A DNA stretch of 64,000 nucleotides from a virus, in IMG/VR virus record IMGVR_UViG_3300030333_006551, positions 1 to 64,000 of that record, one strand, 5' to 3'. Shown here piece after piece: positions 30,052 to 47,540 of the stretch. The stretch's first letter is position 1. The number at the start of each line of letters is the position of its first letter. The notes beneath the pieces were generated by a model. The model saw nothing but the letters and a program-made list of their open reading frames with translations, was not told the DNA's origin and ran no database searches. The position numbers and the translations under genes were made by a program.

Positions 30052-30188
30052 TTTCTTTATTACTTTTCGGGGTATAGGCATATAATATCTTGCACGGGGC
30101 AACTCAGCCTTGGCAATCGTTCTTTAACATTAAGAAGAGGGAGTGCTTCAATGATCTTGCATACAACCAGCACTCCCTCTTCTACTTC

Positions 30189-30266
30189 GGGCAAGTAGCT
30201 CAGACAGGTTAGAGCGCGGTTCTTATAAAGCTGAGGTCGCTGGTTCAAGTCCAGCCTTGCCTACCA
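30189..30266 (+). tRNA. tRNA-Ile(UAU)
   Basis: Cloverleaf: GGGCAAG/CTTGCCT, anticodon loop CT-TAT-AA, GGTTCAAGTCC, encoded CCA. Confidence 0.88.
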
Positions 30267-30409
30267 GATACGCTAAGATTAGCTGATCGTGAGAGAGGCT
30301 GTCAGAACCGAAATCTTAGCAGGGAGGGGCTACGCGGGGTCTTTCGGGACTCTGCGCCCCTCCATTTTATTTCATAGAAAAAAATAACTAAAACGAAGTA
30401 AGGAAGGAA

Positions 30410-41590: not shown

Positions 41591-41730
41591 ATCTCATTCT
41601 CAAATAATCTGATTTGCTCTAAACCATTGTCCCTACGGACTTTAGTTAGAACTTGCATTTACCATATATTTTATCATGCCAAGTTTAGATAATCAAGAAC
41701 AAAGTCCGATTTATTTAGAACCCGTTGTCG

Positions 41731-41780
41731 TAAGTCCTTGTCGATTCTACACTTATGGCGGGACGGGCCGCCCCGCGAAG
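41731..41780. repeat. Bipartite cassette-boundary repeat, copy 1
   Basis: TAAGTCCTTGTCGATTCTACACTTA + 11 nt + GCCGCCCCGCGAA. Confidence 0.9.
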
Positions 41781-41788
41781 GGGGAAAA

Positions 41789-41986
41789 TCAAGTCTTTTC
41801 TGGGTTTTTTCTAATGGGGGAGCATTGTTCGTCACAATCGTCACACCAGTAGGAATCCAATCTTTGCAGCCAAGAGGCTTTGTCCTCAAATCCGACTTCA
41901 TCGCGAGCACCGAGGGCATTCATAGGGAGGAACATGCTCCACTCTTGGCTCACATTCTCCCCGTTACACTTTTCACATATCCACAT
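41789..41986 (-). CDS. Small zinc-finger protein
   Basis: MWICEKC ... WCDDC; GGGGG RBS. Confidence 0.55.
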   Translation of the reverse strand: MWICEKCNGENVSQEWSMFLPMNALGARDEVGFEDKASWLQRLDSYWCDDCDEQCSPIRKNPEKT

Positions 41987-41994
41987 GATTCCCC

Positions 41995-42636
41995 CTAGTG
42001 AGATAGGAACTTGACGGTCTTTTGAGTGGTCCAGCATAGCGCACAGTCAGCACAGCTCTTGACCTTTCCAGTTTGCTCAGGGCAAACAAAGTGCTCACCC
42101 TCAAAGGATTCATCCGCAGCGAATAGGTGGTCCGCAGCATACGCTTTGTTCCGAGAGAATCGGATCACACAACGCTCAGAGAATCGGTTGTTGATGAGCC
42201 AGATGCGCTCACCGATGATGCTATCCTCTTCTCTAGCCGTATAGCCAAAGAGAGCCAGCTTGGGATATTCAAGTAGCATCTCTTCCCAGAACTTCACATA
42301 GTCCACAGAAAAGAAATCACCTAGAACATGCAGACGGATCACGATACCGTCCTTGTGCTTTTCCATGAGCTTATCTATCTCACGATGCAGAAAGAGGTCG
42401 ATGTTCTGGATCTTATAACGGTGTGCGAATGGCATGTTATCACCGTAGCAGTCGTTCCAATGATGGCAGGACTCGGGGCAAGTTGTCCTCTCTTCTAGGG
42501 TGAGAGAATATAGACGCTTCCCTGCCCACTTACCACGGGTAATGCGGAATCCTAGCTTTTTGTTGTTTGATCCAGGCTTGAGGAGACCAGTCCTAGGGTC
42601 CCGCAAGCTCTTCTGATATCGGCTCTTAGTCTTCAT
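41995..42636 (-). CDS. GP88-like Cys-rich (putative Fe-S) phage protein
   Basis: TCPESCHHWNDCY, IRLHVLGDF, GYT, CPEQTGKVKSCADCALCW. Confidence 0.7.
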   Translation of the reverse strand: MKTKSRYQKSLRDPRTGLLKPGSNNKKLGFRITRGKWAGKRLYSLTLEERTTCPESCHHWNDCYGDNMPFAHRYKIQNIDLFLHREIDKLMEKHKDGIVIRLHVLGDFFSVDYVKFWEEMLLEYPKLALFGYTAREEDSIIGERIWLINNRFSERCVIRFSRNKAYAADHLFAADESFEGEHFVCPEQTGKVKSCADCALCWTTQKTVKFLSH

Positions 42637-42643
42637 GGCGTAC

Positions 42644-42672
42644 ATTATATCAGGTCATCAGGGGTATTGCAA
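42644..42672 (-). promoter_or_regulatory. Sigma70-type promoter, leaderless transcript
   Basis: TTGCAA-17 nt-TATAAT, ATG 7 nt downstream. Confidence 0.75.
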
Positions 42673-42698
42673 CACAAAACAGGAAAAACTTTTCGCCG

Positions 42699-42752
42699 TA
42701 AGTGCTTGTGGATTCTACACTTACACGCGAACGCGCCGCCGCGCAAATGCGA
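42699..42752. repeat. Bipartite cassette-boundary repeat, copy 2
   Basis: TAAGTGCTTGTGGATTCTACACTTA + 11 nt + GCCGCCGCGCAAATGCG. Confidence 0.9.
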
Positions 42753-42767
42753 TTTGCAAGGATAAAA

Positions 42768-42848
42768 TGGTGGAGGTGCAGGGAATCGAACCCTGGTCCG
42801 AACGAGTGCCGTGTAGGCTCTAGCCCGTCGAAACTCCTTTACACCCCC
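42768..42848 (-). ncRNA. Minimal tmRNA-like RNA (tRNA-like domain only, 81 nt)
   Basis: GGGGGTG/CACCTCC-A-CCA with G3.U70, stemless D-loop ending TTCGAC, GGAC before the T-arm CAGGG-TTCGATT-CCCTG; only a short hairpin in place of the mRNA-like domain. Confidence 0.8.
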
Positions 42849-42853
42849 AAGGT

Positions 42854-43190
42854 AGGGTGGGCTAGATGTCGCCACCTAGCCAACTGGCCCGAGTTCAGAA
42901 CTCTTGCACCATCACCCCGAAGGGCGGGAGGCCACACTCAGCGGAGTGTTTCCGTTTACCATCTCTTTATAGGTGTGGCCTCCCTGCCTGTTCCCGAAGG
43001 CTACTCGCTTTCTTTTACTTCGTCCCTGATCAAAGGGCGAAGGTGGGGAGGGGGCTAGGCATAAAGTTTGCGATCACCCCTCTCCGAAGGTGGGGAAGGG
43101 GATAGGCTTCTATGGTTTGCATCACCCCTCCCCGAAGGTGGGGAGAGGTAGCAAGACGGTAAACCGCACTTTTACATGCTACCCCTCCCC
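42854..43190 (-). ncRNA. Array of small stem-loop RNAs separated by (A)CCTT(C) linkers
   Basis: Self-complementary units at 43140-43190, 43092-43133, 43045-43085, 42923-42988 and 42854-42918. Confidence 0.6.
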
Positions 43191-43196
43191 GATCAC

Positions 43197-43418
43197 TCAG
43201 CTAACCCCTTGGGTAGCCTTGTGGGCAGCCGTAGCTCCCTGATGCCTACCTGTCCACTCATCGGTGGGAAGAAGGCGACGAAGAGACTTGTAAGCCTCAA
43301 GCGCATGGTCAGACTCGTAAGAGCCCTGCTTCCAGAGGTCAGCGAACAGTTCGCCAACTTGAACGGAAAGACCTTGAATTTTGGCCTCCGTGGTGTTGTA
43401 CTCAAAAGATGAGCGCAT
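43197..43418 (-). CDS. 73-aa hypothetical protein heading the ncRNA cassette
   Basis: GAGGA RBS before MRSSFEY; promoter TGGACA...TATAAT at about 43488-43517. Confidence 0.55.
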   Translation of the reverse strand: MRSSFEYNTTEAKIQGLSVQVGELFADLWKQGSYESDHALEAYKSLRRLLPTDEWTGRHQGATAAHKATQGVS

Positions 43419-43527
43419 AGTGAAATCCTCTTGCAAGAGAGAAACTGAAGTGGGAGTAACTAACACAGACTCCCGATCTGTGAGCCCTATTATACCACGG
43501 GCTAGGTGGATTGTCCAGCGAAAAACG

Positions 43528-43836
43528 CTAGAAATAATACTCATCGGTTCCCATCCCAGCAGAGCCTAGGGCGTCATCATCAGCCCACTCATTGTCCCAC
43601 GGGTCAGACTCAGGCTCCTCCTCACCTCCGAAAACCTCATCTTGGCAGGACTGGCACATACCAGAGATCTGGTACTCCTTGCGGGACACATCATCCCTAA
43701 AGGATGTTGCAATGATGCCTTGGGCATCACAGGTTACACATGTGCCCTCACGGACACAGGTGGCACGGTCCTTGCCGTTGAAGATGATTTCAGAGAGGAG
43801 GGCGTCGATCTGCGGTGCTTTGTATGTCGGTTCCAT
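43528..43836 (-). CDS. Small Cys-containing protein with acidic tail
   Basis: CVTC ... SFRD..S.KEYQISGMCQSCQD; DDALGSAGMGTDEYY; leaderless promoter at 43844-43871. Confidence 0.65.
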   Translation of the reverse strand: MEPTYKAPQIDALLSEIIFNGKDRATCVREGTCVTCDAQGIIATSFRDDVSRKEYQISGMCQSCQDEVFGGEEEPESDPWDNEWADDDALGSAGMGTDEYYF

Positions 43837-43897
43837 GGAGACCATTATACCAGAACACAGGGGCGGATCAAGAGAAATTTTGAGAAACTTTTTGGCC

Positions 43898-43945
43898 TAA
43901 GTCCTTGTCGATTCTACACTTACGGAGGTTGCCGCCGTCGCCCAA
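43898..43945. repeat. Bipartite cassette-boundary repeat, copy 3
   Basis: TAAGTCCTTGTCGATTCTACACTTA + 11 nt + GCCGTCGCCCAA. Confidence 0.9.
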
Positions 43946-44052
43946 TCGGCCAATAGAGGCCAACTGAGGGGGGTTATTAGCTGATTCGAGCGTCTAACCA
44001 CATGAAAAGGAGCCCCATGCAGTAGACGAAGAGGATGAACCAGTAGGGACCT

Positions 44053-44382
44053 TCAAGCATTTCCGCGCATCTCTCTACCTTCTTCGGTGAGGGAGAACTT
44101 GAACTCCTCATCCTCGTCACACCAAGACATCTGCATAATGCCATCGTCCACCAGTTGAGAGAGGGTGAGGTCGATCTGGTGACTACCTGCCCTCTCTGTA
44201 ACTTCAGAGAGAAGCTGCTGAGAGCCTTCAGGGAAATCACGCAGAGCCATACGAGCAGCCCATTCGGAAAGCTCTCCAAGCTGGCCCGTGTAGGGCTGGC
44301 CCTCGATGTTCCACTTCTTCATCTCATCCGTGACGGGAGGATGATCGGGGATGGTGATGTATTCAGGTGTTTCAGGAAACAT
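44053..44382 (-). CDS. Hypothetical protein
   Basis: GGAGG RBS; coupled chain of ORFs. Confidence 0.55.
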   Translation of the reverse strand: MFPETPEYITIPDHPPVTDEMKKWNIEGQPYTGQLGELSEWAARMALRDFPEGSQQLLSEVTERAGSHQIDLTLSQLVDDGIMQMSWCDEDEEFKFSLTEEGREMRGNA

Positions 44383-44587
44383 AGGGAGGCTCCTCCATGT
44401 ATGAGAATTCTTTTTTGAGTTCGATCAGTTCGACAGCCTCAGCCACCTCAGCAGCGCAGAAGCCATCCCAGTACATCTCTGTCGCCAGAGGGCCATGCTC
44501 CACCATGTCGATACCAATCGACTGGCAGATGCGTTGAAACTCAGAGAGCTTCATTTCGAGGAAAGTATCCATCAGGAAAGACTCCAT
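44372..44587 (-). CDS. Hypothetical acidic protein
   Basis: Coupled chain of ORFs. Confidence 0.5.
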   Translation of the reverse strand: MESFLMDTFLEMKLSEFQRICQSIGIDMVEHGPLATEMYWDGFCAAEVAEAVELIELKKEFSYMEEPPYVS

Positions 44588-44763
44588 TCAGGGGTTGCGT
44601 TGTTTGCGTCAGCTTCCAGCTTCTCAGCCAGCTCCTCAGCGTAAAAGGTTTCGAGGTACTGCCTAGCCACCTTCTCAGGGTCAGGGCAGGGGAGGTTATT
44701 GTGATTGGTGGAAGTAAGGACACCGCAGAGATGCCAAGCGAACACATTGTCCGACAGTTCCAT
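44572..44763 (-). CDS. Hypothetical protein
   Basis: MELSDNVFAW; coupled chain of ORFs. Confidence 0.45.
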   Translation of the reverse strand: MELSDNVFAWHLCGVLTSTNHNNLPCPDPEKVARQYLETFYAEELAEKLEADANNATPEWSLS

Positions 44764-44780
44764 AGCGAGATTGAAGTAGC

Positions 44781-44924
44781 TCAAGCTACGACCTCGAAAG
44801 GGATGTCCCACACTCCGATAAGACCACGGAAGTAGGAGAGGAAGGAGGTAAGCTCAGACGCATCGCAGCGCACAAGCTCGTCACCCGTGTAGGGATTCTT
44901 GAGGAGGTATTGAGTTGCTTTCAT
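44781..44924 (-). CDS. 47-aa leaderless ORF
   Basis: ATG 7 nt after TATAAT (44932-44937); hand translation MKATQYLLKNPYTG. Confidence 0.45.
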   Translation of the reverse strand: MKATQYLLKNPYTGDELVRCDASELTSFLSYFRGLIGVWDIPFEVVA

Positions 44925-45180
44925 GGTGTCCATTATATCAGGTTTTTGGGAAATGTCCAGAACTTTCTGGGATTTATTTGCTCGCGTCGTAGCAGGGCTG
45001 GCAGATGAGGAGAGCCCACACTAGGCTATCGACCATGTGGGAGAGGGGGAATCGTCGGTCACAGCAGATACAGCGGACCATGTTGTCTTTGTCGCTCATA
45101 CATGTATAAGGGGCAAAACTCGGCAAACCGAAGGTGATTTCTCTGATTTCTTTTGGGTAATCCTAAGGTTTTTTTCGACC

Positions 45181-45234
45181 TAAGTGCTTGTCGATTCTAC
45201 ACTTACAGCGGGAGCTGCCGCCCCGCAAAATGCG
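45181..45234. repeat. Bipartite cassette-boundary repeat, copy 4
   Basis: TAAGTGCTTGTCGATTCTACACTTA + 11 nt + GCCGCCCCGCAAAATGCG. Confidence 0.9.
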
Positions 45235-45244
45235 GCTGTCAACA

Positions 45245-45618
45245 AAAAAACCCCTCGTTCGCAACCTTTTCTTTCCATGGATAAGTGCGTAGAAAAGAAG
45301 CGGGGCGAACCAGGGGCGAGAGGAAAAGGGAGAGAGAGGGACAGGGCTTAATGTATTACCTGCAAGGCTCCATGTTACTGGTTCTGATCACCTACGACAA
45401 ACGGCTATTGCCTTGACCATACCTCACGGATTTCCGCATCGGGTTCTGGCCTGTCTGCACTAGAGAGCAACAAAACTCTTATTATGCGACCCGCATCAGG
45501 ATGCCTCCCGATGCCTCTCCGAATTTCCAACCCCCTGAGAAGGATATCACTCCTCAGAGGCGCTCTGGGCCTAATGTCTATTTATACTCGCCCAGACGAG
45601 TGCCTAGCGTCCTAGGCA
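45245..45618 (-). ncRNA. Putative large structured non-coding RNA
   Basis: No ORF of 60 aa or more; consecutive hairpins at 45601-45618, 45564-45596, 45532-45560 and 45494-45515; long terminal hairpin plus T run at 45245-45316. Confidence 0.45.
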
Positions 45619-45830
45619 GTTAGGTAACGGTGATTACCCTTCGCCACATACTGGCGAGAACGCTTGTACTTGCGGTTCCAAGCGGACTTGGCTCCAGCAA
45701 GGGTGCCAACGAAGCTGTTGCTCCGTGTCGAGAGGTCGAAGATGGTGTAGACAGCGTTGCTGTCCGAACCAACCCGAACCATGACCGCGCTCTGGTTTGA
45801 GCGCACGATAGAAGTGATGTTGTTGAGCAT
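45612..45830 (-). CDS. 72-aa basic hypothetical protein
   Basis: AGGAG RBS; promoter TTGACC-17-TATAAT at 45869-45897. Confidence 0.6.
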   Translation of the reverse strand: MLNNITSIVRSNQSAVMVRVGSDSNAVYTIFDLSTRSNSFVGTLAGAKSAWNRKYKRSRQYVAKGNHRYLTA

Positions 45831-45893
45831 TTGCTCTCCTAGTAAGGGGTTTCGTTGAATGAGGGGCCATTATACCATGACCCCCCATGAAGG

Positions 45894-46286
45894 TCAAGCC
45901 TCAAGTGCGAGAAAAACATCTTCCTCGCTGATTTCCTTTCCGCTTGCAATATCCGAAGTGAGAGTAGACAAGGCAGCACGAAGCGCAGCCTTACGAGCCT
46001 TAGACACAGCGATCACCTTCTCAGCGTTAGCCTTCGCATTCTCAATAGATGCGATACGGGCCTCCGCCTTGGCGATGCGGGTGTCGAAGTTCTGCGGACC
46101 CTTAGAGAATCCTTTACGAGCCATAAGCTCGACCTTCTCAACCTCCTTGATCTCCTGAAGGAGAGGGGTGAGAAGCGGGTTAGATTTGGCCTCAGTCTCG
46201 GCCTGTTTGGCTTGCAGCTTGGCAAGCCGCGCCTCTGTCTCAGCGATAAGCTGATCGGGCGTTTTGCGTTTACGGGTTTCGTTCAT
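45894..46286 (-). CDS. Ala/Lys-rich coiled-coil protein
   Basis: Leaderless promoter TTGATC-16-TATAAT at 46294-46321. Confidence 0.65.
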   Translation of the reverse strand: MNETRKRKTPDQLIAETEARLAKLQAKQAETEAKSNPLLTPLLQEIKEVEKVELMARKGFSKGPQNFDTRIAKAEARIASIENAKANAEKVIAVSKARKAALRAALSTLTSDIASGKEISEEDVFLALEA

Positions 46287-46347
46287 GTGGAGCATTATAT
46301 CATAATCTGGAACGAGATCAAGACCTAATCCAAAGAAATATCGGTCC

Positions 46348-46401
46348 TAACCCCTTGTGGATTCTACACTTACGGCCAGCCGCGCCGCCCACCCAAATGC
46401 G
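46348..46401. repeat. Bipartite cassette-boundary repeat, copy 5
   Basis: TAACCCCTTGTGGATTCTACACTTA + 11 nt + GCCGCCCACCCAAATGCG. Confidence 0.88.
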
Positions 46402-46479
46402 ACATGCAAGAAAAAAAGGGGAGAGGATTGATGAAAGGTAGAGCCAGTAGCCTAACCTGAGGCCCCCTCCCCCCGAATG

Positions 46480-46803
46480 CTATGCCTCCATCGTGTTCCA
46501 CTCATCGTGGAGGTGGGAGTTCACGCAGATATCACGCTCGATACCTAGGCCCATGGGGAGACTGAGAGACTGAAGCTCAGAGAGGCTGAAGTAGCCCCAC
46601 TCTGCGCCACCGAAGCCCAGATCCACACGACCGAAGAAGAGCCAATCGCCCTCTGCATTCTCGGAGCCTTCGTAGACTTCCCAAGTGCCCACACCTACAG
46701 GGTTGAAGAACTTGACCACGATCTCTTTCTGATCGGTGGGGATGTCTTCGGTGGAGTAGAGAGGGGGAAGAGCCTTCTTGATTTTGTCTGTGAGTAGTTG
46801 CAT
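46480..46803 (-). CDS. DUF2958-family protein
   Basis: MQLLT....ALPPLYSTE, VKFFNPVG..TW...E, FFG.VDLG..AEWGYFSLSEL, IERD. Confidence 0.8.
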   Translation of the reverse strand: MQLLTDKIKKALPPLYSTEDIPTDQKEIVVKFFNPVGVGTWEVYEGSENAEGDWLFFGRVDLGFGGAEWGYFSLSELQSLSLPMGLGIERDICVNSHLHDEWNTMEA

Positions 46804-46894
46804 TAGAGAATACCTATAAGGGTGAGAATTGCGCCACTTGTGATGGCAAGAAAGAAAATTGCGCCTTCGATGGCGTCTCGTCTTGATCGGGTCA

Positions 46895-47104
46895 TTATCC
46901 GCGCTCCTTGTCGTTCCAGAAGTCTGCCCAGATCTCGCGCTCTTCACGCGCAAGCTCATCGCTGAGGTGCTGATACCAATCATCGTAGTCAGCATCTCCC
47001 ATCTCGGACTCGTCAGCCATGGCCTCTAGGACTTCGCGCTCCTCACGCACATCGTCCACCATGTCTCCTAGGATCTCGTTCCATTCTGTGCTGTGCTTGA
47101 TCAT
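46895..47104 (-). CDS. Highly acidic 69-aa protein
   Basis: Leaderless promoter TTGCAG-17-TATAAT at 47111-47139. Confidence 0.6.
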   Translation of the reverse strand: MIKHSTEWNEILGDMVDDVREEREVLEAMADESEMGDADYDDWYQHLSDELAREEREIWADFWNDKERG

Positions 47105-47128
47105 GGGTGTATTATACCTTGTTTGGAG

Positions 47129-47368
47129 TCAGTCTGCAAGAAATTTCTTGCGAATTTGGATAGCTCCACGGTGGTCCTGCCACTCACGCAGCAGTTCGTT
47201 CACCGTGATATCTTTGTCGAAGTGGATATCTTCCCAGACTCCACCTTCCACCTGCATTATCTCATGAGCAGAGGCTAGAGCCCCTGCATAGGTCATATGG
47301 AGGGTCTGAACCAGAACACCTTCATAGTCCTCACGAAGCTCAACAGTGTAGATTTCTCTGTTTTCCAT
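47129..47368 (-). CDS. Hypothetical protein
   Basis: Leaderless promoter TTGCCT-17-TATAAT at 47375-47403. Confidence 0.6.
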   Translation of the reverse strand: MENREIYTVELREDYEGVLVQTLHMTYAGALASAHEIMQVEGGVWEDIHFDKDITVNELLREWQDHRGAIQIRKKFLAD

Positions 47369-47540
47369 GCGTGTATTATATCAGGACTAGGCCCTAGAGG
47401 CAAGTACAAAGCATGATTTATATTGAGACATCCTAAGCACTAGGAATACCCAATGTTTGGCGGAGGATTTCGCAAAGGACTATAGGATTCCCCATTTGCG
47501 CCACCCGTATACATCGTACAAGTATTTCTAAGTTAACACT

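Follow-up and report, generated by a model that had tools for sequence, protein, structure and literature searches.

Full two-piece transfer-messenger RNAs (tmRNAs) have been described in marine myophages (PMC9004378), reduced tmRNAs are found in jakobid mitochondria (PMC3590771), and the tmRNA of mycobacteriophage DS6A is listed as "TLD only," TLD standing for the tRNA-like domain (Hudson, Lau and Williams 2014, PMC4131195). The same report describes a strong inhibition of tmRNA by a TLD-only-like molecule, perhaps through titration of SmpB (PMC4131195). Among phage RNAs, tag-less mini-tmRNAs have barely been charted as a class; they are thought to interfere with ribosome rescue in the host. 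Here we analyzed the region upstream of a mini-tmRNA gene in a virus from IMG/VR (record IMGVR_UViG_3300030333_006551). The window, i.e., the whole stretch of 64,000 nucleotides (nt) under study, is the first 64 kb of this 129,906-bp record, which is complete according to CheckV. The mini-tmRNA itself is of the published DS6A TLD-only kind, and it is preceded, from position 43196 to 42849 of the minus strand, by an array of RNA hairpins that starts right after a small open reading frame of 73 codons (ORF73). We describe the structures of this array, their conservation and order, their strand specificity and their variation in natural populations, and we find that the array belongs to a family of modular leaders in marine phages.

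The mini-tmRNA (42768 to 42848, minus strand) matched Rfam entry RF00023 with 63.6 bits, positions 1 to 374 of the model being covered in 81 nt. It comprises the tRNA-like domain only, with a G3:U70 pair, an encoded CCA and no tag reading frame. ARAGORN reported no tmRNA in the window, which is consistent with the absence of a tag.

Read along the minus strand, the array consists of three tandem hairpins, two small conserved hairpins, a long hairpin and a branched, tRNA-shaped unit, after which the 81-nt mini-tmRNA begins. A conserved spacer, GUGAUC (43191 to 43196), lies between the stop codon of ORF73 and the first hairpin; it has 6 to 9 nt and reads GUGAUGUC, GUAGAUC or similar in most relatives. 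The three tandem hairpins (termed D1 units) have a 5′ arm of the GGGGAGGGG type, a 3′ arm of the CCUCUCCCC type and unrelated loops, and ACCUUC (ACCTTC in the DNA) follows each of them. Unit 1 (43140 to 43190) has a 14-bp stem (GGGGAGGGGU...ACCUCUCCCC), unit 2 (43092 to 43133) carries a loop unrelated to it, and unit 3 (43045 to 43085) is a diverged duplicate of unit 2, their shared flanks being 91 to 96% identical. ACCUUC linkers separate units 1 and 2 (43134 to 43139) and units 2 and 3 (43086 to 43091), and the ACC tail of unit 3 was read at 43042 to 43044. The next hairpin, D2 (43019 to 43041), has a conserved base, UUCG...CGAA, and a variable interior. A conserved A-rich single strand, GUAAAAGAAAGCG (43006 to 43018), connects it to D3 (42986 to 43001), a small hairpin with a GCCU/AGGC stem and a conserved loop, UCGGGAAC. 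In the minimum-free-energy fold, the 3′ arm of D3 shares positions with the outermost D4 pairs. D4 (42926 to 42984) is a long hairpin with the arms GGGAGGCCACAC/GUGUGGCCUCCC, which read as GGGAGGCCACAC/GTGTGGCCTCCC within 42988-42923, and with the loop motif GAUGGUAAACG; GCC-CUUC (42919 to 42925) forms its tail and linker. D5 (42854 to 42918) is branched, two hairpins being enclosed by a GGGGUG/CACCCU helix, and leads into ACC-UU (42849 to 42853). Its overall layout is that of the mini-tmRNA, and it gave no tRNA or tmRNA match in Rfam at an E value of ≤10.

An initial annotation, made by reading the sequence, had placed three tandem units at 43190-43140, 43133-43092 and 43085-43045, each followed by ACCTTC, a long stem unit within 42988-42923, and a branched unit at 42918-42854 followed by ACCTT and the mini-tmRNA, all of which we recovered on the minus strand. 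The "small hairpin" that it had noted in between does correspond to structure, which resolved into two modules, D2 (43041-43019) and D3 (43001-42986), split by the A-rich strand. Its ACCTTC linker stands for the D1 units and has to be replaced by GCC-CTTC after the long hairpin. The acceptor-like ends that it had attributed to most units, namely, a 5′ G-run and a helix with ACC behind it, are found in D1, D4 and D5 when the 3′ end is read as RCC (ACC or GCC), and are absent from D2 and D3. The D4 tail is GCC in the window and ACC in L142, a neighbor 95% identical to it.

The 441-nt stretch folded with a free energy of -194.4 kcal/mol, compared with -161.6 ± 6.2 kcal/mol for shuffled sequences (z score of -5.27, with 0/100 shuffles as good). 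CCCCACCTTCGG, allowing up to 2 mismatches, occurred 6 times in the window (1.76 expected), 5 of the 6 copies being at 42846-43143 on the minus strand, and a repeat search recovered a period of 47 to 57 nt and inverted arms in the array. Within the whole 129,906-bp genome, the linker-plus-arm motifs were confined to 42.8 to 43.2 kb. The GGGGAGGGG/CCUCUCCCC stem followed by a U-run was found as a terminator at 46472-46418, after the tRNA-Ile gene and in L019; D1 thus has the same stem as the terminators of this phage but with ACC in place of the U-run. The hairpin after tRNA-Ile (30313-30360, plus strand) is GGGAGGGG/CCCCUCC with a U-run, and stems made of G- and C-runs appear to be the standard terminators of this phage. 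D1 was rejected as an intrinsic terminator, as ACCUUC and no U-run follows it and the scan found no terminator on the minus strand here.

The loop of D1 unit 1 contains GGUUUACCGUCU, which is complementary to the D4 loop: positions 43154-43164 and 42954-42964 (the D4 loop motif) can form 11 pairs, one of them G:U. The same D1 loop is perfectly complementary to D4 of the closest relative, L012, which itself has no unit 1. This anti-D4 word was present in only 1/65 leaders, in the lineage of the window, and this pairing is therefore not a feature of the family. The complementarity could reflect chance or an inverted duplication.

We then examined the relatives of the locus. Homologs of ORF73 were found in 13 IMG/VR loci, 9 of which contain a mini-tmRNA (Rfam), and a GP88-like gene was located downstream in 14/18 loci checked. 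The viral contigs are syntenic for ORF73, the hairpins, the mini-tmRNA and the GP88-like gene. In the IMG/VR loci, a single module usually fills the gap from ORF73 to the mini-tmRNA: a D1 hairpin with ACCCUUC in L003, L011/13, L014, L021, L097, L146, L165 and L178, with a covarying version in L022/L145; the set of D2, A-rich strand and D3 in L004/23, L016, L154, L159 and L020; and D4 alone in the closest relative, L007/12. ACC followed D1 in 10/10 viral loci with D1 and in the window, even where another hairpin comes next. Three ORF73 loci without a downstream mini-tmRNA (L017, L018 and L019) also lack D2 to D4.

Metagenome contigs provided 458 further stretches encoding ORF73 relatives. The best 80 of these (70 to 99% ORF73 identity) yielded 68 distinct intergenic sequences, of which 3 were excluded for a length below 40 nt and 7 for lack of a locatable mini-tmRNA start, leaving 58 complete distinct leaders. 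The complete leaders measure 77 to 352 nt, a length that counts 9 nt from the end of the ORF. Of these leaders, 49/58 contain the A-rich strand and, after it, D3 with its GGGAA loop, 29/58 contain the GGUAAAC of D4 and 3/58 contain D5; the 9/58 that have no D2-D3 show only D1 before the mini-tmRNA. The order of the modules was constant: stop codon, spacer of 6 to 9 nt, D1, ACC, D2, GUAAAAGAAAGCG, D3, D4, (A/G)CCCUUC, optional extra modules and then the mini-tmRNA. With three copies of D1 and with D2, D3, D4 and D5, the window has the largest version seen. Since the same modules occur in the same order across the leaders, the array of the window is not unique but the most expanded form of a modular leader that occurs family-wide in marine phages. 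In these 58 leaders, the modules lie between ORF73 relatives and mini-tmRNAs. Some metagenome variants have, in place of D5 or after it, a further module, UUGGUGUGGAC...UUGAUCA.GUG..UCGACGGA, immediately upstream of the mini-tmRNA (L404, about 1120-1180; L410, about 1460-1510), and the repertoire of modules is therefore larger than the five types of the window.

Searches with blastn against 50,697 phage records gave no match to the region. The exact arm-linker-arm pattern hit a single IMG/VR locus, L002, which we discarded as a chance match in a GC-rich coding region without any Rfam match. The pattern CTTCGGGGGTG...TTYGAC was found in at least 120 IMG/VR loci; counting the earlier loci, 11 of the matches listed had a mini-tmRNA and 114 did not. 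We inspected 60 of these 114 and rejected them, as they were mostly chance matches in coding sequences, along with the permuted tmRNA L057. Among the matches listed, none of the 120 genome loci with CCCACCYTTCGGGGGYG had a tmRNA behind it, which gave no instance of the leader beside a bacterial tmRNA gene; the leader may nevertheless have come from bacteria.

The modules vary between relatives. D2 occurred as 22 hairpin strings (several of which also take in the upstream D1), all with the UUCG...CGAA base and with at least 8 different interiors. D3 occurred in 19 distinct versions, whose stems covary (GCCU/AGGC, UAGCU/AGUUA, UAGCCU/AGGUUA, UGAGCU/AGCUCG and UGAAGG/CCUUCA) around a loop of the (A/U)CGGGAAC type. 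Between the window and L142, the D4 stem changed from G:C to A:U and from A:U to G:U, and the D1 helix of L145 was kept through three double changes. Over 49 distinct helix-plus-ACC units, we counted 390 Watson-Crick, 43 G:U, 2 A:C and 6 other pairs. A DNA cruciform or an RNA of the opposite strand would give equal numbers of G:U and A:C pairs, and the ratio of 43 to 2 demonstrates that the structure is selected in the RNA transcribed from the minus strand, the strand of ORF73 and the mini-tmRNA. Covariation in relatives was one outcome that the initial annotation had called for, and the stem tables and the excess of G:U over A:C provide it. These counts were taken from per-sequence stem tables; when 21 D2-D3 segments were aligned with MAFFT, the variable hairpins fell out of register, and RNAalifold accordingly predicted 0 pairs. 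Across the 29 distinct D2-D3 segments that were listed, the UUC(G) of the linker forms the paired base of D2 (UUCG...CGAA), which makes ACCUUC|G no obvious site for a cut at this place. None of the 4227 Rfam families matched the array at the gathering threshold, in line with the earlier statement that no named family could be recognized. At an E value of ≤10 only two chance-level matches appeared, to a flavivirus stem-loop (E = 0.21) and to a snoRNA (E = 3.5), and neither ARAGORN nor Rfam at E ≤ 10 returned a T-loop, a cloverleaf or a tRNA-clan match in 42849-43196.

The D1 block differs among phages whose ORF73 is 88 to 99% identical to that of the window. The window carries units u1-u2-u3, L343 (99% identity in ORF73) carries u1 and another unit, uX, L350 and L351 carry a u2-like unit and uX, and L344, L347 and L376 carry uX alone. 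In a 514-nt DNA contig from run X2, positions 43051-43124 (units 2 and 3) are replaced by uX, a single unit with an unrelated 33-nt loop, and the flanks of this contig differ from the window by 0 and 5 letters on its two sides. Two DNA contigs from run X3 match the window up to 43135 and continue with 16 letters of the ORF73 end, i.e., the start of unit 2 is joined directly to the ORF73 end, which is what a form without unit 1 would show; a joint from 42978 to 43085 in the same run was not relied on, its shorter side having only 29 letters. Compared with L142, the window shows two clean indels, one of about 215 nt (three D1 units, D2 and D3) and one of 69 nt (D5), the latter with linker-plus-G-run words at both bounds. 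These swaps and bounded indels indicate that the constant arms of 9 to 14 nt behave as recombination handles through which units or loops are exchanged. The contrast of constant stems and variable loops, initially noted within the array, thus extends to natural strains. RNA runs X16 and X17 cover parts of ORF73 relatives, one relative of the array and a generic tmRNA 3′ end. These are assembled contigs from which read starts, read ends and strand are not inferable, and their uncovered parts and depths are uninformative. One 167-nt contig from an RNA library spans the D1/D2 junction of a relative unbroken, with DNA carry-over possible.

We next considered how the leader would be expressed. ORF73 (43197..43418, minus strand) encodes a conserved, helical protein of 73 amino acids, and 12 aligned sequences share 56 to 95% identity. 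AlphaFold2 modeled it as a helical hairpin with a predicted local distance difference test score (pLDDT) of 85.6, and we found no Pfam, PHROG or PADLOC family, no fold match in the PDB (best Foldseek E value of 2.1) and no match in the Atlas. AcrIIIA1 is a small phage protein described as working with t(m)RNA fragments (PMC11662646); we see no link between ORF73 and AcrIIIA1, which is a loose precedent for a partnership of ORF73 with RNA. A sigma-70-like promoter precedes ORF73 at 43489..43517 on the minus strand (TGGACA, a gap of 17 nt and TATAAT, with a TG; 11/12 hexamer matches). The promoter scan found no other promoter-like site on this strand before the one at 42672, and none belonging to the mini-tmRNA itself; from ORF73 to the mini-tmRNA, the minus strand showed neither a promoter-like nor a terminator-like site. 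ORF73, the leader and the mini-tmRNA are thus likely to form one transcription unit, as the initial annotation had assumed, with transcription predicted from 43517-43489. Immediately before G1 of the mini-tmRNA, the leader ends with CUUC in 32/58, CUUU in 12/58 and CCUU in 7/58 cases. The same arrangement of a hairpin and ACUUC precedes the tRNA-Ile gene of the phage at 30189 (plus strand); its ACTTC leader had been pointed out before, and we found the upstream hairpin as well, a 12-bp stem followed by the leader UCUACUUC (30130-30188, plus strand).

Two side observations concern phage tmRNA genes. L057 (permuted), L005 and L009 contain two-piece, circularly permuted phage tmRNA genes, and in L057 only CTTC joins the 3′ ACCA to the 5′ GGGGGUG, which is the junction format of the array linkers. 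In several relatives, a GC-rich and apparently structured noncoding sequence of 100 to 300 nt lies 3′ of the mini-tmRNA, before the next promoter cassette (L156, 2206-2400, corresponding to L016, 3379-3540; L151, 2053-2400, corresponding to L023, 3369-3690; L143, 2287-2390; L155, 2032-2300). This sequence matched no Rfam family at the gathering threshold.

We tentatively favor, with somewhat less than even confidence, a cis-acting role for the array as a modular leader and 3′ untranslated region of a single transcript carrying ORF73 and the mini-tmRNA. Promoter, ORF73, leader and mini-tmRNA would then make up one transcript, in which the RNase P of the host would cut at the pyrimidine leader, CUUC|G, and free the mini-tmRNA; pre-tmRNA and hairpins are among the known substrates of RNase P (PMC11143913). 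The hairpins would stay on the ORF73 message and block exonucleases at its 3′ end, and they may insulate the domains from one another so that each folds independently, and the conserved single-stranded motifs and loops probably bind some factor. The three D1 copies could stem from recombination between identical arms, and the same process would swap loops and make the copy number of D1 drift. Several points weigh against this proposal. The conservation of GUAAAAGAAAGCG, CGGGAAC, GAUGGUAAACG and the ACC tails exceeds what a passive 3′ stabilizer needs and points to an additional function, and the strict ACC after every D1, even before another hairpin, fits discrete acceptor-like units better. 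Loops are fully replaced between strains, which may be the outcome of selection favoring diversity and not of neutral recombination. The leader has a C at position -1, which is not known to be the base that RNase P prefers in E. coli. Finally, the RNase P cut and the fate of the leader in this proposal are predictions from the sequence.

In the model of the initial annotation, RNase P would cut at every G-run and 3′ trimming would then yield stable hairpin RNAs that mimic acceptor helices and whose variable loops or ends act in trans, e.g., as decoys for host enzymes or toxins that read the acceptor ends of tRNAs or as partners of ORF73. We regard this as possible but unlikely. D1 (in three copies), D4 and D5 do start with a G-run and end with a helix followed by ACC or GCC, the ACC being present after D1 in 10/10 viral loci with D1 and in the window, and D5 is branched and shaped like a mini-tmRNA or tRNA. 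The tRNAs of the phage carry an encoded CCA, which makes an RNase P that reads CCA plausible, and hairpin-loop substrates with a 3′ CCA, 4.5S RNA and the phage C4 antisense RNA are reported to be cut by this enzyme (PMC11143913). The hypervariable loops on constant stems in near-identical phages also resemble diversifying cassettes. However, D2 and D3 lack both end features, the linker UUCG is paired as the base of D2 in the listed relatives, some D1 loops have just 4 to 6 nt, which leaves nothing for a guide, and neither a T-loop nor a match to a tRNA model was found. The phage does not encode a CCA-adding enzyme, SmpB, an RNA ligase or an RNase P RNA among the genes that we searched for. None of the initially suggested roles as decoys, antitoxins or guides found support; in the phage's own genome, the loops have four complements of 12 to 13 nt against roughly 5 expected by our estimate, and the RNA-library contig mentioned above, with the same reservation about DNA carry-over, crosses the D1/D2 junction uncut. 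The idea of polycistronic tRNA-mimic RNAs is thus partly supported. In a more elaborate form, which we hold to be quite unlikely, D1 would be a strain-variable cassette array of acceptor-end mimics, released by RNase P together with an SmpB-titrating mini-tmRNA and serving in trans as decoys or adaptors; their targets would be host factors that recognize acceptor helices or the 3′ ends of tRNAs, such as defense nucleases, nucleotidyltransferase toxins or RNA-decay enzymes, and swaps would occur at the constant arms. A different reading gives the central role to the core made of D2, the A-rich strand, D3 and D4, which would itself be a trans-acting noncoding RNA (e.g., a sponge for proteins, a riboregulator, or an unrecognized ribozyme or aptamer working with the mini-tmRNA, perhaps on ribosome rescue or RNA decay in the host), D1 and D5 being accessory. 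This appears rather unlikely to us. It would account for invariant single-stranded motifs beside covarying stems at ORF73 identities of only 70 to 99% (about 55 to 65% in the viral loci), for D2-D3 being in 49/58 leaders and always upstream of the mini-tmRNA in the loci examined, and for L017, L018 and L019, where the mini-tmRNA and D2 to D4 are missing together; it would also suit an island rich in structured RNAs, with a Pistol ribozyme upstream of ORF73 in 7/13 viral loci. Yet none of the 4227 Rfam families matches the core, even at E ≤ 10, the 9/58 leaders without D2-D3 have only D1 before the mini-tmRNA, and we found no candidate partner. A tag reading frame inside the core was rejected: read by eye from the GCG that comes behind the A-rich strand, the frames run for 2 to 24 codons, and frames and stops are inconsistent, with 1-nt indels shifting the frame between variants.

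A repeat element acting at the DNA level, such as a mini-CRISPR array or solitary repeats, repetitive extragenic palindromic (REP) sequences, miniature inverted-repeat transposable elements (MITEs) or a ToxI-like array, is very improbable and largely refuted. The junctions can be read as palindromic "repeats" of about 25 nt (3′ arm, ACCUUC and 5′ arm) between strain-variable "spacers" of 22 to 33 nt, and the copy number varies between strains, as it does in pseudo-ToxI arrays of phages. However, relatives with a single unit have one hairpin and no repeat-spacer-repeat, with loops down to 4 to 6 nt (the range being 4 to 47 nt or more), and the ends of the array are half "repeats," which excluded a CRISPR array or solitary repeat. 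The 43 G:U against 2 A:C pairs argue for a structure in RNA and against a DNA cruciform. Among 221 loci, 12 contain the linker-plus-arm motif, with one copy each, and it is found nowhere else in the 130-kb genome, where the only related hairpins are terminators with a U-run; REP and MITE elements were discarded on these grounds, and the possibility of scattered repeats, which the initial annotation had itself named as a threat to its proposal, does not apply. A ToxI-like type III antitoxin was rejected as well, since the units differ from one another and carry unrelated loops, a ToxN-like gene is absent and 0/8 island proteins belong to PADLOC families.

The virus is a distant T4-like marine phage; Microcystis phage Mel-JY01 and Flavobacterium phage immuto have portal proteins that share about 35% identity with its own, and the 20/20 sequencing runs containing parts of the window are marine, seawater or unspecified metagenomes. 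The array sits in a GC-rich island of the minus strand (about 41.6 to 47.5 kb) with 48 to 52% GC, compared with roughly 35 to 45% elsewhere. This island (41600-47500) is oriented opposite to the rest of the genome and is composed of small cassettes, each with its own sigma-70-like promoter; it contains a GP88-like gene, a gene for a DUF2958 protein and several genes for small proteins without a family. The cassettes are separated by five conserved, intergenic copies (41743, 42711, 43910, 45193 and 46360, minus strand) of a promoter element of about 100 nt containing GTAAGTGTAGAATC. The element has a GC-rich segment, a hairpin GUAAGUG...CACUUAC that contains TAGAAT, and then a TTG..-17-TATAAT promoter; diverged versions of it are located at the same places in relatives, and we take it to resemble the promoter-stem-loop cassettes of T4-type phages. 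A Pistol ribozyme (45526-45601, minus strand; Rfam, 69.6 bits) lies about 2.3 kb upstream of the array in the same island. The four tRNA genes that ARAGORN found in the window are all at 30 to 31 kb. As a further observation, the IMG/VR contig L157 has long repeats of the GGCTATGGC type near its ORF73 homolog (about 1000-2200 and at the far end), which would encode proteins rich in Gly-Tyr-Gly-Asp on both strands.

One widespread lineage of marine phages thus couples a mini-tmRNA to a conserved, modular and structured leader. Being short (150 to 350 nt), this leader is an RNA system in which to ask how phages mature or regulate such RNAs, whether RNase P punctuates arrays of hairpins other than tRNAs, and what drives the cassette-like turnover of hairpins in natural virus populations. 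If the hairpins do act in trans, they would constitute a new type of phage RNA effector, and if the D1 units are acceptor-mimic decoys, they would form a new class of counter-defense RNAs whose diversity is driven by an arms race.

How does the leader compare with the RNA arrays and cassettes known from phages? ToxI consists of identical 36-nt repeats that are cut by their own toxin, and the pseudo-ToxI arrays of phages vary in copy number between isolates. Our array is likewise a tandem noncoding RNA array of a phage whose copy number varies between isolates, but it has constant stems with unrelated loops and no ToxN-like gene. The promoter-stem-loop (PeSL) cassettes are DNA-level recombination and regulatory cassettes that lie between genes and shuffle genes in T4-type phages. 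The gene cassettes of the island are similarly split by a repeated promoter-plus-hairpin element of about 100 nt, and exchange at short conserved sequences fits the D1 swaps; unlike PeSL, the array is made of RNA structures inside a single intergenic region. With the TLD-only tmRNA of DS6A, the 81-nt gene downstream of the array shares a tRNA-like domain, an alanine identity and the lack of a tag, whereas the DS6A report is concerned with the tRNA-like domain itself and, in the text available, mentions no structured leader (PMC4131195).

Our literature searches on phage tmRNA turned up no title or abstract dealing with a structured leader; the modular leader is real and conserved and has apparently not been described. 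The "species 1 and 2" RNAs of phage T4 are stable RNAs that are co-transcribed with its tRNAs. Multimeric tRNA precursors of phage T4 with co-transcribed stable RNAs are reported to be processed by RNase P (PMC11143913). Like them, the array has helices that start with G, 3′ tails of the (R)CC(A) type, short linkers, a tRNA-type RNA in the last position and an expected role for RNase P. Unlike them, it is headed by a protein gene on the same transcript, most of its units are simple or branched hairpins that have neither a T-loop nor a D-arm, two of its modules lack acceptor-like ends, and its processing is only predicted. Hairpins other than tRNAs that RNase P is reported to cut include pre-4.5S RNA, the C4 antisense RNA of phages P1 and P7, the M3 RNA of a phage and synthetic hairpin-loops (PMC11143913). 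D1 and the long hairpin D4 resemble these substrates in having a 5′ G and a discriminator plus CC after the helix; they differ from them in that the terminal A of CCA is not encoded (ACC-UUC), in being tandem and strain variable, and in that cleavage is a prediction only. RNase P-punctuated phage tRNA precursors and RNase P hairpin substrates are the nearest analogs of this leader.

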